Part shown: positions 8,891-63,808 of the stretch, in pieces | Layout of the letters: each line of letters starts with the position of its first letter | How positions within the stretch are numbered: position 1 is the stretch's first letter | Translations under genes and position numbers: made by a program | The notes under the pieces: generated by a model | Seen by the model: the letters and a program-made list of their open reading frames with translations, nothing else | Database searches by the model: none | Told to the model about the DNA's origin: nothing | Virus record (IMG/VR): IMGVR_UViG_3300017766_003100 | Coordinates: 154,388 to 218,387 of that record | DNA length: 64,000 bases | Strand: one strand, 5' to 3' | Origin: a virus | Taxonomy: Duplodnaviria > Caudoviricetes

Positions 8891-9265
8891 ATGGAAAAGT
8901 TAATAAGAAGAATCTTAAAAGAAATTAGAGAAGAAAATCCCCATCATCAACTTAAAAAGTTTTTGGAAGATAGGATTAGTTTTGAAGGTTATGATTTGGA
9001 TAAAAATCCACGTAACAAAATTAGTCAATTATATGATGTTTTTGAAGATGAATATGGTTGGGCTATCAAAAGAATGGGTGAAAGAAAAGCTATAATTGAA
9101 TGGTTACAAGGATTACCAAGTACAATTGATATTCCTTATTATTATGATGAAATCAGTAATTTATTGTATGCTTTAGGTTTTGATGAGGTCAAAGAAATGG
9201 AAGATGATGAAGTTAGTGAATTTTATTATGATTTAATTGCAAAAACTATTCTAAAAAACAAGTAA
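8891..9265 (+). CDS. tagged hypothetical protein
   Basis: MEKLIRRILKEIREE start; late-type motif at 8871. Confidence 0.7.
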   Translation: MEKLIRRILKEIREENPHHQLKKFLEDRISFEGYDLDKNPRNKISQLYDVFEDEYGWAIKRMGERKAIIEWLQGLPSTIDIPYYYDEISNLLYALGFDEVKEMEDDEVSEFYYDLIAKTILKNK

Positions 9266-9319
9266 ATTAATTAACATTTAACTTTTACAAAGTCCCACTA
9301 TTTTTAACTAAAAAAGATA

Positions 9320-9616
9320 GTGGGATTTGTTTACTTTGTCAAAGACAATTCTGACCAAGTTAAAATAGGGTACACAAAAAGAGATGTACAAAAGAGGGTA
9401 AAAGAGTTGAATTCACCAAATTTAAGTGTTATTCTTGAATTTGAGTCAAAGTACCCCACCCAACTAGAAAAAGCCTTACATTTTAGATTCAAACAACATA
9501 ATATTGAGAGGGAGTGGTTTAATTTAACTGACTTCACTATTGATGATTTGAAAAATATTTGTCATATTTTGGATGAAGGAATTTGTATAATAAATGATAA
9601 AACAAAAATAATTTAA
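9320..9616 (+). CDS. GIY-YIG superfamily (T5orf172/MUG113-like) protein
   Basis: FVYFV...VKIGYTK..V.KRVKELN...LEKALH.RF...NI.REWF. Confidence 0.8.
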   Translation: MGFVYFVKDNSDQVKIGYTKRDVQKRVKELNSPNLSVILEFESKYPTQLEKALHFRFKQHNIEREWFNLTDFTIDDLKNICHILDEGICIINDKTKII

Positions 9617-9618
9617 CA

Positions 9619-10053
9619 ATGGAAAACGAGTTAACAGAAAAATTAATGAACTCCAAAAGAATTATGGATATCGTATCCAAGGGAGATACTATTAAGAAGT
9701 TCCCAATCTCAAGTCAAGGTGGACCATTCTTTTACGTTGACAAATCTGAACCAAACCCAGTGTTAAAAAAATATGAAGTCCCAGTGGGGTTAGTTGAAAA
9801 ATTCAGACAAACATTTGGAGATGAAGATGGTAATGTCGGACTTTATCTAACTGAAGAAGACATAAATAATTTTGTAAAAACAAATGAAATTCCAAAAAGA
9901 ATAGTAGAATGTGTTCAATGTACTCTTAATCGTCTTGGAAACGATTTTACAATAACGCCAAAATTAATTAATCCTAAAGATTTAAGTGTTACTTGGGATA
10001 TATTAGGTGATAATGGTTTAAAATATAAAATTTCAATAAACATACAAAAATAA
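9619..10053 (+). CDS. hypothetical protein
   Basis: ORF track. Confidence 0.65.
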   Translation: MENELTEKLMNSKRIMDIVSKGDTIKKFPISSQGGPFFYVDKSEPNPVLKKYEVPVGLVEKFRQTFGDEDGNVGLYLTEEDINNFVKTNEIPKRIVECVQCTLNRLGNDFTITPKLINPKDLSVTWDILGDNGLKYKISINIQK

Positions 10054-10081
10054 TACTCAATAAACGAAAATAAATTTTAAT

Positions 10082-10687
10082 ATGAAATTAAAAGAATTAA
10101 TTAAGAATGAAATTATCAAAGGAGATGAATTATCAGTAATGATTGATTTATTAAAAGAATGTGAGGAATTGCAAAATTGTGATGAATTAATTATCATAAA
10201 AGAACCAGTGTTTCTTGATGAAAATGGGAAAACAAAGATGGTTCAAACTTTTAAGGTTGACGATAATAACTCTTTTAAAGGTAAATGTTATCTCTATTCA
10301 ATTGGGTTAACACCTGAAATGTTTGACCCAAATAAAATTAATGATTTGGTTAAAGATGGTGCATCAATCACTCCTGCAATAGTTGACCCATCAACATTGA
10401 CATTAAAAAAGAAAATTATCATAGAGTTTGAACCTGAAACATTACAAGACGAAGCAATTTATGGTCTTGGAAGTCCTAGTATGATTGAGGATGCTGAAAA
10501 TGAAAAAAATAAAAGTATAAGAAAAAAATTACATCAAACACTAGATAATATTTTGGATTCACCACAAGATTATCAAATTAAAGGTGAAAGGGGTGTAATG
10601 ATTAGAGGGGTGTTTGAAACCAAAAAAAATGATGAGGTAGAATTAACTCAGATGCCACTTTGTTCAATGTTAATTCCACCTGAATAA
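10082..10687 (+). CDS. hypothetical protein
   Basis: ORF track. Confidence 0.7.
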   Translation: MKLKELIKNEIIKGDELSVMIDLLKECEELQNCDELIIIKEPVFLDENGKTKMVQTFKVDDNNSFKGKCYLYSIGLTPEMFDPNKINDLVKDGASITPAIVDPSTLTLKKKIIIEFEPETLQDEAIYGLGSPSMIEDAENEKNKSIRKKLHQTLDNILDSPQDYQIKGERGVMIRGVFETKKNDEVELTQMPLCSMLIPPE

Positions 10688-35372: not shown

Positions 35373-35394
35373 ATTATAGTTAGGAAAAAAATAT

Positions 35395-47537: not shown

Positions 47538-48461
47538 ATGGAAATCTTAACTGAAAAAGAGTTTAGGACAAAAATCAACATAATTTATCAACAAGAAAGA
47601 ATAAAAATTCTTAATGAAAAATGGGATAGATTATCCAAAGATGACAAGTTGATAATAATTGAAATGTTTAAATTATTAAATCCTAATGTGAAAATTCCAA
47701 TAAACGAAGCTAAATGGTATAACACTGTTTTGGATTGGGCTGGATTAATACCTGGTATTGGTTCGGCGATTGATTTGGTTAATGGATTTGATTATTGGAG
47801 ACAAGGTGATAAATTATATGCTATTTTATCTTGGATTGGAGCATTACCTATTTTTGGTGATTTAATTGCAGCACCAGTTGTTTCTGTTTTAAAACTTGGT
47901 GGGAAAGGAGCTGAATTATTTAAAGGAGCTGTTTTGGCTAAAGATGCCGTTAAGATAGCTGAAGCAGCAAAAAATCTTGGAGGTCCTGTTGCTAAAATGA
48001 TTGAAAAGGCACCATCATGGGGAGTAAAACTAATTGAGGTATTAGAAAAAAGTGTTGGTAAGTTTCCTTGGTTAGGTAAAGGTTTAGTTGAAACTGTAAA
48101 GACATGGGTTGATTTATTTGTAAAAGCAGGTAAAGGTGGTTTAATATTTAAACCATTAGGTAGACAAGCTGTTAGAAAGTTAACAAATAATACAAAATTT
48201 TATTTAGGATTATTAGATTCACTAGGTTTGGGTAATTTTTCTGGACCACCAGAAGAATTAATCAAAAAAGTTCCTGACTTAGCTGATAAAATGGCCGAAT
48301 TTGAATCAACACCCCAAGGACAACAATTAAGTTCTATGGGTAGTGAATTACCAATGAAATCTGAACTACCAACATTTACTCCACCTCAAACATCATCACC
48401 TCTATCATCAATGGTTAAATCAGTTGACCCAATTGACGCTTTGAAATTATTGGTGATGTAA
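47538..48461 (+). CDS. tagged protein with pre-toxin TG-like helical domain
   Basis: VLDWAGLIPGIG.AIDLVNG..YW.QGD...A.LS..GALP..GD. Confidence 0.65.
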   Translation: MEILTEKEFRTKINIIYQQERIKILNEKWDRLSKDDKLIIIEMFKLLNPNVKIPINEAKWYNTVLDWAGLIPGIGSAIDLVNGFDYWRQGDKLYAILSWIGALPIFGDLIAAPVVSVLKLGGKGAELFKGAVLAKDAVKIAEAAKNLGGPVAKMIEKAPSWGVKLIEVLEKSVGKFPWLGKGLVETVKTWVDLFVKAGKGGLIFKPLGRQAVRKLTNNTKFYLGLLDSLGLGNFSGPPEELIKKVPDLADKMAEFESTPQGQQLSSMGSELPMKSELPTFTPPQTSSPLSSMVKSVDPIDALKLLVM

Positions 48462-48504
48462 ATTAAAAATAATTAACCCAACATTTTATATTATAAAAAA
48501 CTCA

Positions 48505-48512
48505 ATATTTAT
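48505..48512 (+). promoter_or_regulatory. putative late promoter
   Basis: ATATTTAT upstream of 48530; supports that start over 48665. Confidence 0.65.
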
Positions 48513-48529
48513 TAATAAAAAAACAATAA

Positions 48530-50035
48530 ATGAAAAAATCACACAAAATGGTCCTGATTGAAAGTGGAATAAGAGATATTAATTCTCTTGCTCTTCGCTA
48601 CAAAAAAGCGAAGGTCTACTTTCATCAGGACCTTTGACTGGATGGAGTTACATCTGCATTAGGAATGAAAAAATACTTGGAAGATAATGGTATCAAAGTA
48701 GTTGATGCTGAAGTCATCCAATATGGTGACCAAGAATGGGCAATAAAGAAACCCGAAGCAAGTGGTGGAGTTATGCCTGTGTTGGTTGACTTTGCTCACG
48801 GAAAACCAATGTTTTTGATTCACACAGACCACCACGATTCACAATCAGGTGTTGAGGGTGATACGTCAACAAGTTTCAAAAGTGCGAGGTCTAATGTTGA
48901 AACAATATCAGGTATATTATCACCAAAAGATTTGTTTCCATCAGGAGATATTAAATTAATTTCAACTGTGGATTCGGCCAACTTTAGGGTTATGGGAATT
49001 TCAATTGATGATGTTAACAATTATATCTTTAATCTTGATAAAGGTTTACCTGTAGAAAAAAATAAAATGTTGATGGGATTAGTTACCAACAAATTATTAT
49101 TAGCATTTAAGAACAAAAAAGGATTTTTAGAAAGATTAGTTTTAGAGTGTGAGCCTTCATTGATTAGTATTCTCAACAAGATAAAACAAATTATGAAAGA
49201 AGAAGGTTGGTCAGGTGTTGAAGATTTACAGATGAATAGGGAGAAGTATATTGAACAGATGAGAGGTTATGGTAAACAATCATATGAAGATGGCATCATT
49301 ATTAAAGATGGTGGTGGAAGTATGATAAAACCTGGTTCATATGATAGATATGTGAGTTTTAAATTATATCCTGATGCTGATTTTCAAGTTATTACTTGGG
49401 GTTCTGTTGGACTTTTACAAGTTTCTTGTAATCCTTTTAAGGAACAACGAGGACTAAAAGGAATTGATTTGGGGGAAATAAATAGAGGCATTCTTGAAGG
49501 AAGAAAGAGTGAATTGGAACAAATTAAAATTACTGCAAATAGATTAAAAAAAGTTGCTGAGACTAGTAAAAAATTCGTACCTGGTGAGAGTGTTGGATTT
49601 ACGGCAAAAGACCTAGTAGCATTTTATGGTAATAGTATAAAAGGGTATAATGAAATACCAAGAAAGTTTGAAAACTTTTTATCAAAGAAATATCCTGATT
49701 ATGAAAGAGGATTAGAAGAATGGAAAAAAATTGTTAGTAAAACAATGAGTAAACCTTATGTTGAATTAAGTGAATTTGAATTGGCTGTATTAGATTCTAT
49801 TTATACAACTGCTTATGATGTAATCAAGAACAATAGTGGCGGACACAAATGTATTACTAATTTCCAAACATCAGCATTAGGTGGTGGTTTTGGTCCTTAC
49901 AAAACAACTGATTTTATTAAAGAAATAAAAGATGAGTTTGTTCAAATTCTAAAAGACAGAATTAATGCCGAGAAAGGGGACAATGTAAACGAAAACTATT
50001 TTAGGGGTATTATTAAAAAAGTAATGAAAGGTTAA
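48530..50035 (+). CDS. DHH-family phosphoesterase with an in-frame TGA at 48635-48637
   Basis: ATG 48530 is in frame with the track ORF at 48665 and reads YFHQDL*LDGVTSALGMK; VLVDFAH, TDHHD (DHH) and TVDSA follow. Confidence 0.8.
48550..48632 (+). promoter_or_regulatory. three-way-junction RNA structure inside the DHH coding region
   Basis: P1 48550-48568 pairs with 48615-48632 (18 bp, 1 bulge); P2 AAGAGA/TCTCTT; P3 CTTCGCT/AGCGAAG. Confidence 0.75.
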
Positions 50036-50037
50036 GA

Positions 50038-50385
50038 TTAAAGGGGGAATAATACATTATCCCCCTTTTTTATTCCTAATTTTTTACAAGTTCCACCTTT
50101 TACTTCAAGTATAAAGTTTCCTTCACCACAATAATTTTTATGTGATTCATCAGTCATTGGTTGACAATTGTGATATATTTTGGTTATGACATCATTATCA
50201 ATAAAGATTATATCTAAAGGGATAATACAATTTTTCATCCAAAAACAATGTTCTTGGTTTCTCATTACAAATAACATTCCATTGAATGTTTTGTCAAAGG
50301 TTTTGTTCATCATACCTTCTTGAGTTTCTTCAGGTGATGTTTGAATTTTTACCTTGAAAATGTTGTCATTTATACTTAACTTCAT
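50038..50385 (-). CDS. DUF192 (UPF0127) protein
   Basis: EGMM...GMLFV...FWMKNC.IPLDIIFI; ILEVKGG; GIKKGD. Confidence 0.9.
   Translation of the reverse strand: MKLSINDNIFKVKIQTSPEETQEGMMNKTFDKTFNGMLFVMRNQEHCFWMKNCIIPLDIIFIDNDVITKIYHNCQPMTDESHKNYCGEGNFILEVKGGTCKKLGIKKGDNVLFPL
50041..50072. terminator. bidirectional terminator
   Basis: AAGGGGG...CCCCCTT between convergent genes. Confidence 0.8.
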
Positions 50386-63678: not shown

Positions 63679-63791
63679 AGTCCTGTGGCGGAATTGGTAG
63701 ACGCACATCGGCAGGTGATTTAGTTTGAGGATACAGCGGCAGTCGAGGTCACAAACATATACAAATACAGGTTCGAATCCTGTCAGGACTA
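63679..63791 (+). tRNA. atypical 113-nt tRNA-Leu-like RNA with non-canonical enlarged central region
   Basis: Acceptor AGTCCTG/CAGGACT, Leu-type D arm GCGGAATTGGTAGACGC, T arm ACAGG-TTCGAAT-CCTGT, discriminator A; 62 nt between D and T arms without a canonical anticodon arm; no encoded CCA. Confidence 0.8.
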
Positions 63792-63808
63792 CAAAAAATT
63801 AATAGACT

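Follow-up and report, generated by a model that had tools for sequence, protein, structure and literature searches.

In the genome of a lake phage of the class Caudoviricetes (Duplodnaviria), a gene for a DHH/DHHA1-type phosphoesterase is interrupted inside its first catalytic motif by an in-frame stop codon lying between two leucine codons (CTT TGA CTG), and we consider it probable that the full-length enzyme is produced through programmed translational bypassing (a stop-hop), with the re-zipping of an upstream RNA helix as the driver. The gene lies in the stretch of 64,000 nucleotides (nt) analyzed here, hereafter the window, which spans positions 154,388 to 218,387 of IMG/VR virus record IMGVR_UViG_3300017766_003100. 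The same arrangement, which we term the cassette, recurs at the same point of related genes, and with a little less confidence we favor the view that these genes constitute the first natural family of programmed stop-hops, i.e., a portable three-way-junction module with a 17-base-pair (17-bp) helix placed at CUN-stop-(0-5 nt)-CUN, whose re-zipping would slide the mRNA by 6-11 nt. A natural short in-frame stop-hop is most likely new relative to the known cases of bypassing. An earlier reading of this DNA, made from its letters without database searches (the sequence-only reading), had proposed a natural stop-hop at this site, and the proposal has gained support from insert variants of 6, 8, 9, and 11 nt with all three stops, from a cassette-specific helix and from purifying selection on both coding parts.

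The interrupted gene

The window DNA is A/T-rich, with a G+C content of ~30%. On its plus strand, a 35-codon frame opens at ATG 48530 and closes with TAC TTT CAT CAG GAC CTT; after TGA 48635-48637, CTG GAT GGA GTT continues in the same frame into a 456-codon open reading frame (ORF), which the ORF finder lists from ATG 48665 to 50035 and which contains IHTDHHD and NSGGHKC. The sequence-only reading had described the start at ATG 48530, the Leu-stop-Leu arrangement and the continuation into the 456-codon ORF, and its coordinates and translation are exact. The features of the gene are as follows.

48506-48523, plus strand: A/T-rich TATTTAT-type motif directly before the start codon, promoter-like (putative function).
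48530-48634, plus strand: coding part 1, 35 codons (MKKSHKMVLIESGIRDINSLALRYKKAKVYFHQDL), the last of which is the take-off codon; from translation and conserved protein sequence.
48551-48568, plus strand: 5' strand of the long helix, GUCCUGAU-U-GAAAGUGGA, partner of 48615-48631.
48570-48590, plus strand: inner hairpin 1 of the three-way junction, from the minimum free energy (MFE) structure.
48592-48614, plus strand: inner hairpin 2, CUUCGC...GCGAAG in the window, from the MFE fold; present across clades.
48615-48631, plus strand: 3' strand of the long helix, UCUACUUUCAUCAGGAC, which stops one base short of the take-off codon.
48627-48630, plus strand: Shine-Dalgarno-like AGGA inside the 3' strand of the helix (putative role).
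48632-48634, plus strand: take-off codon CTT, the Leu of the D-L-D motif; CUN in all interrupted alleles.
48635-48637, plus strand: TGA, an in-frame stop that would occupy the A site at take-off; TGA, TAA, or TAG across alleles.
48638-48640, plus strand: landing codon CTG (Leu), which would be skipped as a second Leu if the hop occurs.
48641-50035, plus strand: coding part 2, DGVTSALGMKKYLE..., with DHH motifs II-IV, a DHHA1-type GGH motif and the stop codon at 50033-50035.

The protein sequence of part 1 is kept in both interrupted and uninterrupted homologs. The promoter-like motif, in the form (a)tatttat..aaaaa 10-25 nt 5' of the ATG, precedes the gene in nearly all cassette loci and is missing from most uninterrupted alleles with a short N-terminus. 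TGA terminates 11 of the 45 long ORFs in the window and acts as an ordinary stop in this DNA. CTG, which is used as the landing codon and also in the helix, accounts for 0.6% of the Leu codons in the window.

Size and reality of the insert

A protein-guided scan of IMG/VR yielded 80 loci, about 65 of which read HQDLDG without interruption, including L007, whose gene body is 97% identical to that of the window. The closest relative compared, a 64.5-kb viral contig with ~71% DNA identity in the gene, has an unbroken IYFHQDLDGVTTAL, and two distant homologs from uncultured phages of 630-640 kb have unbroken YFHKDLDGVTSAL and WFHKDLDGVASAL. Because all uninterrupted homologs read either HQDLDG or HKDLDG, the window carries exactly 6 additional nt, placed after the Leu codon and before the second Asp codon. 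The homolog alignment thus agrees with the earlier claim that removal of 6 nt gives HQDLDG with the spacing shared by homologs, and a natural HxDLxLDG spacing, which had been named as grounds for refuting that reading, does not occur among them. The Leu codon at the take-off position of the uninterrupted homologs is mostly TTG or TTA.

CTT TGA CTG or CTT TGA CTT is present in contigs of six different metagenomes (L009-L014), the cassette identical to that of the window recurs in independent IMG/VR and metagenome assemblies, and contigs of several public sequencing runs from several studies, two of these runs being RNA libraries, contain the cassette stretch. A sequencing or assembly error is rejected, given the presence of the cassette in dozens of independent assemblies and several runs. 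On comparative grounds a chance insert is likewise excluded, with 104 loci sharing the cassette at the same point.

A family of cassettes with one grammar

Three pattern scans, two of viral contigs and one of metagenome contigs, extended the cassette set to these 104 viral/metagenomic loci, which comprise 46 distinct upstream sequences and about 20 variants; a Tara Oceans scaffold contributed one of the loci. The inserts at the site are 6, 8, 9, or 11 nt long and TGA, TAA, and TAG are all represented.

6-nt inserts: CTT TGA CTG; CTT TGA CTT; CTG TGA CTT; CTT TAA CTT; CTT TAG CTT.
8-nt inserts: CTT TGA CG followed by CTA or CTG.
9-nt inserts: CTC TGA GGG CTT; CTC TAA followed by GGG or AGG and CTT.
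11-nt inserts: CTT TGA followed by CGGGT, GGGAA, CGAAA, CGGCA, or CGAGT and then CTT or CTA.

The grammar is almost always CUN-stop-(0-5 nt)-CUN, then GAY GGN. In every interrupted allele the take-off codon is CTT, CTG, or CTC with the stop directly after it, and the landing codon, two variants apart, is CTT, CTG, or CTA. The stop is retained as a stop even though its identity varies. L027 has CTT TAA CTT in a gene whose body is just ~52% identical to that of the window. The 8- and 11-nt inserts alter the reading frame, as in the 11-nt CTT TGA GGGAA CTT of L053-L055, and read-through cannot therefore restore HQDLDG in all alleles. A skip from CUN to CUN restores it in every variant and is the one reading that suits them all.

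A scan of the whole window for stop codons at matched-codon junctions gave many chance matches, as the DNA is A/T-rich, and none with strong upstream structure. One of these, TTA TAG TTA at 35374-35382, falls within an intergenic overlap without strong structure and is most likely due to chance. It is in frame with a 576-aa ORF from 35395, and the open stretch upstream of it overlaps the end of the preceding gene. When genome contigs were scanned for the cassette, a single chance match was obtained in a metagenome-assembled genome of the Caldilineaceae, which offers no clue to the host.

An RNA structure that accompanies the cassette

Of 18 distinct cassette alleles, all of them found via protein rather than by nucleotide pattern, 17 have an MFE of -31 to -37 kcal/mol over the 81 nt directly 5' of take-off, with z scores of -6 to -9 relative to dinucleotide shuffles. 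For the corresponding 81 nt of 38 uninterrupted homologs the mean is -10.9 kcal/mol and the z score -0.9, with strong structure in none of the 38. In the window, 48545-48660 folds as a three-way junction in which the 17-bp helix 48551-48568/48615-48631 encloses two hairpins. This helix overlaps codons for V-L-I-E-S-G and (V/I)-Y-F-H-Q-D.

In 21 aligned cassette alleles, 98.6% of the cells of the helix are paired, vs. 32-47% for controls in which the partner strand was slid by 1-3 columns. Full covariation is seen in the same alignment at pair 48551/48631 (G-C to A-U, 17:3) and at pair 48557/48625 (A-U to G-C, 13:7). Across the 46 distinct sequences, per-position pairing of the 5' strand is 93-100%; it should be noted that the search pattern had fixed the 3' strand of this larger set, which leaves the 5' strand alone as a test. 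The two inner hairpins are retained in 44 of the 46 distinct alleles, with stems whose sequence and register depend on the clade (hairpin 2 is, for example, UUGGCU/AGCCAA or UCGCU/AGCGA). Strong structure tracks the cassette in six independent tree contrasts, which stand for co-inheritance and not for repeated origin since structure and cassette are physically linked. The helix may well act as a stimulator of the hop.

Selection on both coding parts

Clades that consist only of cassette alleles have a synonymous divergence (dS) of 1.0-1.5 in the gene body, with a ratio of nonsynonymous to synonymous rates (dN/dS, omega) of 0.08-0.13. The body is open over 434-775 codons in 68 of the 74 complete cassette loci, L187 and the L104 lineage being the exceptions. 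In part 1, dN/dS is <1, and all 104 loci keep an open frame of 34-43 codons. Both coding parts are, on this comparative evidence, under purifying selection, and the neutral decay of the downstream ORF that would have spoken against the sequence-only reading is not what we see.

Synonymous differences point to a further layer of constraint. Over the 25 codons 5' of take-off their proportion is 0.32 in cassette pairs (0-0.26 within clades) and 0.78 in cassette-free pairs of equal body divergence; over the 30 codons 3' of landing the values are 0.66 and 0.61 (96/155), respectively, with 0.66 resembling the remainder of the gene. As synonymous change in cassette pairs is 0.32 before the cassette and 0.66 after it, the constraint would act at the nucleotide level, be limited to the structured stretch and end at the cassette.

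Individual alleles do carry lesions. L104 has a TCA-to-TAA nonsense change in the body and is the sole allele with a broken helix (TTACTA in place of GTCCTG; MFE -8.4), and this lineage, sampled in five contigs (L104, L115, L125, L141, and L178; body codon 76), fits a copy that has lost its function. L187 has a premature stop at codon 199 and an intact helix. Among uninterrupted alleles, L076 has a stop within part 1, and together these cases point to occasional decay or assembly errors in both the interrupted and the uninterrupted class.

A DHH/DHHA1 enzyme cut within motif I

Membership of the DHH family, which the sequence-only reading had guessed from motifs, is now backed by invariant residues and by a predicted fold. 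Pfam DHH (PF01368) scores 14 bits against the read-through product of the window, the cut-off being 28.1, and 14 close uninterrupted homologs all remain below threshold (best E 6e-5). A profile search yielded 452 family representatives, and one distant member (P0108) passed the Pfam cut-off at 29.7 bits. A PDB sequence search with the family profile returned no DHH match at E<=1, and PHROGs has no family that covers the DHH-like protein.

In 46 homologs with identities as low as 25%, the residues that never vary (numbering of L007) are H32, D34, D36, G37, D85, D98-H99-H100, D146, and G435-G436-H437, which are those of DHH motifs I-IV and of the GGH motif of DHHA1. The AlphaFold2 model of the uninterrupted L007 protein, built on a 46-sequence alignment, has a predicted local distance difference test score (pLDDT) of 91.5 and a predicted template modeling score (pTM) of 0.89; an earlier AlphaFold model, for which 14 sequences had been used, was of poor quality in its DHH domain, which the 46-sequence alignment cured. 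Foldseek returned 67 PDB matches to the L007 model at E<=1e-3, and the top 50 were all DHH/DHHA1 structures, including DhhP, PggH, GdpP, NrnA, RecJ, RecJ-Cdc45, PAP phosphatase, and family II pyrophosphatase. The phage protein resembles NrnA, GdpP, PggH, DhhP, RecJ, and family II pyrophosphatase in its invariant H-x-D-x-D-G, D, DHH, D, and GGH, but differs from known DHH/DHHA1 proteins in its long, helical domain linker and in the sub-threshold Pfam score of the window's close relatives. With motif I (H-x-D-x-D-G) identified through both motifs and fold, the cassette lies between two invariant metal-binding Asp residues.

Public gene calls in this family often start at an internal Met (MKxYLE...; P0008, P0055, P0081, P0148, and P0149), and interrupted alleles are probably annotated as N-terminally truncated proteins without motif I. 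Some family members (P0002 and P0008) have C-terminal PG_binding_1 and glycoside hydrolase 19-like (lysozyme-like) domains, and in L110 an endolysin-like gene (9209-10207) adjoins the DHH gene. These domains and this neighbor are hints of a link to cell-wall lysis or to a virion-borne function.

The insert in RNA libraries

An RNA check of whether the 6 nt are kept or missing had been suggested with the sequence-only reading, and in two RNA-library contigs from different studies they are retained. The first spans 48545-48695 with 6 differences, the second spans 48580-48780 with 19 differences, and neither has a gap or joint. Bulk loss of the 6 nt from RNA is thus argued against, while a minority species would be compatible with these data. 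The contigs of two other RNA runs (X23 and X17) do not cover the cassette.

Exchange of the 5' module

On the body tree, presence and absence of the cassette switch at least nine times, and near-identical bodies can differ in it (L012/L007, L014/L008, L027/L028, L053/L047, and L103/L003). L103 and L003 show dense differences up to the cassette and then none over ~190 nt; L012 and L007 show dense differences from -200 to +158 and then none. Such patterns show that the 5' module is exchanged by recombination. The module that interrupted alleles have in common comprises the helix and the cassette together with the TATTTAT-type motif and an N-terminus that is longer and contains VL(I/V)ESG. The DNA directly 5' of the gene is hypervariable.

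How the hop would proceed

From these comparisons we infer a hop in which a tRNA-Leu is carried forward by the pull of the helix, with a part for AGGA in landing. The ribosome would translate 35 codons, unwinding the 81-nt three-way junction as it goes, until peptidyl-tRNA-Leu sits on CUU 48632-48634 in the P site with UGA in the A site. While termination is slow, the free 5' strand of the helix would re-pair with the 3' strand behind the ribosome; at this point the 3' strand, i.e., the 17 nt before take-off, would lie in the mRNA exit path, with its partner strand and both hairpins already outside. Zippering would then pull the mRNA, breaking codon-anticodon pairing, and cause a slide of 6 nt here and of 8, 9, or 11 nt in other alleles. 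The same tRNA-Leu would re-pair with the next CUN, CUG 48638-48640, and decoding would restart at GAU to give ...YFHQDLDGVTS... with the metal-binding D-x-D intact. The peptide expected across the hop junction is ...YFHQDLDGVTSALGMK / ...VYFHQDLDGVTSALGMK.

The AGGA at 48627-48630 is 7 nt before the landing codon in 6-nt alleles and may set the landing via the anti-Shine-Dalgarno sequence; longer gaps frequently have a G-rich run of their own. With regard to a nascent-peptide signal such as that of gene 60, a basic RY(K/P)KA(K/E) is found 8-13 residues before the P site, and it is present in uninterrupted homologs too. In the case of T4 gene 60, pairing of the exiting mRNA has been argued to drive forward movement (Wills, Parsawar and Atkins), and wobble-mismatched pairs of take-off and landing codons occur among gene 60 relatives (bioRxiv 10.1101/2022.08.31.505936).

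Several points weigh against a programmed hop. The 3' strand would be within the ribosome at take-off, and the pulling model is based on geometry taken from the literature. Synthetic stop-hops that are not stimulated have been described as no more than low-level. Re-pairing from CUU to CUG would need a reader of the tRNA-Leu(UAG) type and none is found in the 64-kb window. Two variants have non-Leu landing codons, GTT (L195) and ATA (L197). The RNA data consist of assembled contigs, in which carried-over DNA is possible and rare variants are hidden. The further body stops in the L104 and L187 lineages mean that some interrupted alleles decay. Finally, with at least nine switches and recombination, the low diversity upstream of the cassette could in part reflect recent spread rather than constraint.

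Alternative explanations

Termination at the stop followed by re-initiation, either at the CUN codon or at ATG 48665, would give a split or truncated enzyme, perhaps complemented by the 35-residue peptide, and we regard this as improbable. AGGA is at a normal Shine-Dalgarno distance from the landing codon (7 nt), ATG 48665 is 27 nt beyond the stop and gene calls in the family often begin at that Met. The landing codon, however, is CUU, CUG, or CUA and never AUG, GUG, or UUG in about 100 loci, and initiation at CUU or CUA is very poor. A start at Met46 would leave DGVT(S/T)A(L/I)(G/A) untranslated though it is conserved in all interrupted alleles, and L108 and L120 have Ile at this position. 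Motif I would lose its invariant His and both Asp residues or, at best, have its D-x-D split over two chains, and there would be no reason for the helix to end precisely at the take-off codon.

About equally improbable is that the genes are inactivated, the cassette being an insertion scar in a recombination-prone 5' patch that spreads between co-infecting phages without yielding full-length protein. The gain or loss of the cassette at least nine times on the body tree, the recombination breakpoints nearby, the additional stops of L104 and L187 and the hypervariable upstream region all suit such a scar. It is at odds with an omega of 0.08-0.13 over a dS of 1.0-1.5 in all-cassette clades and with a part 1 that is open and conserved in all 104 loci. 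A scar would not retain changing stops, flanking Leu codons over four lengths or a covarying 17-bp helix. Moreover, no homing endonuclease is encoded by the ten upstream neighbors, where a Pfam search gave no HNH or GIY-YIG domain; what is found there instead is a ~300-aa protein without assignment, a C5 methyltransferase and an endolysin-like protein.

We give a shade less credence to removal at the RNA level, whether of a tiny spliced or edited segment or by an RNA polymerase that realigns CUU after the hairpin. A strong hairpin followed by CUUU does resemble part of an intrinsic terminator, whose hairpin pulls the transcript, the 3-nt direct repeat could guide realignment in principle, and a minority RNA is compatible with the contigs. 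Set against this are the two RNA-library contigs described above, the role that a stop directly after the first repeat would lack, and the length of the repeat; 3 nt suits codon-anticodon re-pairing and is too short for an RNA-DNA hybrid to re-anneal. An Rfam search of 48350-48850 (E<=10) returned noise only, with no family, intron, or ribozyme. The group I intron scar that the sequence-only reading had offered as a second possibility has fared poorly for the same reasons, namely no Rfam match, an insert of just 6-11 nt and its retention in RNA-library contigs, and the boundary feature cited for it (an insert that follows U and ends in G) is true of the window's own variant alone.

Read-through in the 6- and 9-nt alleles, coupled with a -1 frameshift in the 8- and 11-nt alleles, would place 2-4 extra residues inside motif I and is the least probable of the four. 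The window does have UGA followed by C, which is a leaky stop context, and CUU UGA C, which is the prfB shifty site, with AGGA just 5' of it. Nevertheless, two mechanisms would be needed for one allele family along with suppression of all three stops, the added residues would vary by allele and would part the invariant Asp residues of D-x-D, and the matched landing Leu codon would be left without explanation. Within the window TGA serves as a normal terminator, and a search for tRNA genes across its 64 kb found none, hence no suppressor tRNA either. Two related readings were rejected: a prfB-type +1 shift would meet a stop (TAG) after 8 codons (DWMELHLH*) and cannot serve the 8-, 9-, and 11-nt alleles, and a code change or general read-through (code 4/25, selenocysteine, or suppressor tRNA) fails on the ordinary use of TGA in the window, on TAA and TAG at the same site and on gap lengths that 3 does not divide.

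Genomic neighborhood

A 307-aa ORF (47538-48461) adjoins the DHH gene on its 5' side and is matched by neither Pfam nor PHROGs. The window, L007, and L009 have this ORF and L012 and L103 lack it, in strains that are near-identical in other respects, and its position is an insertion/deletion hotspot. On the other side, between the DHH gene and a convergent minus-strand ORF (50038-50385), a G/C-rich hairpin at 50037-50075 (GGGGGAATAAT...ATTATCCCCC) is followed by a T run and is probably a bidirectional intrinsic terminator.

A tRNA-like RNA at 63680-63795 has a D-arm, T-arm, and acceptor of the tRNA-Leu type with a long aberrant middle, and ARAGORN makes no call there. The hexamers at the ends of the hop helix recur in its acceptor stem (GUCCUGU/ACAGGAC). 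Pairing of this RNA with the cassette in trans was considered and put down to chance, as its homologs in two relatives with other cassettes are without matching complementarity. Large cassette-bearing relatives have tRNA-Leu genes of their own (L208 210-409; L209 197-283; L211 197-283; L215 1161-1247 and 2477-2556), with anticodons UAG and UAA in a 318-kb contig that has an 11-nt cassette; in three contigs whose cassettes are CTC/CTT the anticodon is AAG. A further tRNA of L215 is odd in that its anticodon has 4 bases (actt).

Significance

If the stop-hop is real, the cassette would be a minimal natural test bed for the model in which pairing of the exiting mRNA drives bypassing. An element of ~120 nt would allow a direct test of the long-debated idea that mRNA pairing behind the ribosome powers forward sliding, and the roughly 20 natural variants in stop, gap, and take-off and landing codons on one covarying helix amount to a mutagenesis series made by evolution. 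The cassette might also serve as a regulator that determines how much DHH phosphoesterase is present and that responds, for example, to the level of release factor, to ribosome spacing, or to temperature. Gene callers and databases would then mis-annotate the interrupted genes as N-terminally truncated. More generally, caution is advised with stop-interrupted phage genes that have matched flanking codons, which should not automatically be taken for pseudogenes or given internal-Met starts.

Relation to known recoding systems

To our knowledge, programmed bypassing is among the rarest of recoding events, the known instances being T4 gene 60 and its relatives, the byps of yeast mitochondria and a few candidates. 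Mitochondrial byps are 27-55 nt long. The arrangement in the window is closest to that of synthetic stop-hops, in which a stop has matched codons on both sides and 9 nt encode one amino acid; these are established and have no known natural occurrence (PMC5009743). The matched-codon-stop layout of those built in E. coli by Weiss, Atkins, Gesteland and colleagues is that of CTT TGA CTG in the window (PMC5009743). In the synthetic case the P-site peptidyl-tRNA detaches and re-pairs downstream, for which a slow-to-decode stop in the A site is needed. The synthetic constructs were engineered and have no stimulatory signals, whereas the phage cassette is natural, occurs at ~100 loci with 6-11 nt and has an RNA structure upstream.

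T4 gene 60 and the phage cassette both have a Shine-Dalgarno-like element close to the landing site, and their differences are considerable. The gap in gene 60 is 50 nt; that of the cassette is 6-11 nt, too short for an internal take-off stem-loop, and its putative stimulator is a 17-bp helix that closes a three-way junction and lies wholly upstream, unlike that of gene 60. The matched codons are Gly GGA in gene 60 and Leu CUN here. A MobA-type homing endonuclease is adjacent to gene 60 and none is next to the cassette. The host genes also differ, a topoisomerase subunit in T4 and a DHH-like phosphoesterase here, and sequence homology is absent.

The prfB gene, which encodes release factor 2 (RF2) and whose +1 frameshift site is Shine-Dalgarno-N3-CUU UGA C, shares the shifty string CUU UGA C with the window, along with a P site that holds peptidyl-tRNA-Leu, a stop in a poor context and a Shine-Dalgarno-like sequence just upstream. 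The spacing to CUU is 3 nt in prfB and 1 nt from AGGA in the window, which would need a jump of 6-11 nt and not a +1 shift. The byps of Magnusiomyces capitatus mitochondria and the Streptomyces phage candidates are likewise short skipped inserts with matched or nearly matched codons (PMC5009743, PMC10732093). Mitochondrial byps occur in many genes, rely on an A-site codon that goes unused and are said to depend little on mRNA context, whereas the phage cassette is confined to one site, uses standard stops and comes with a conserved structure.

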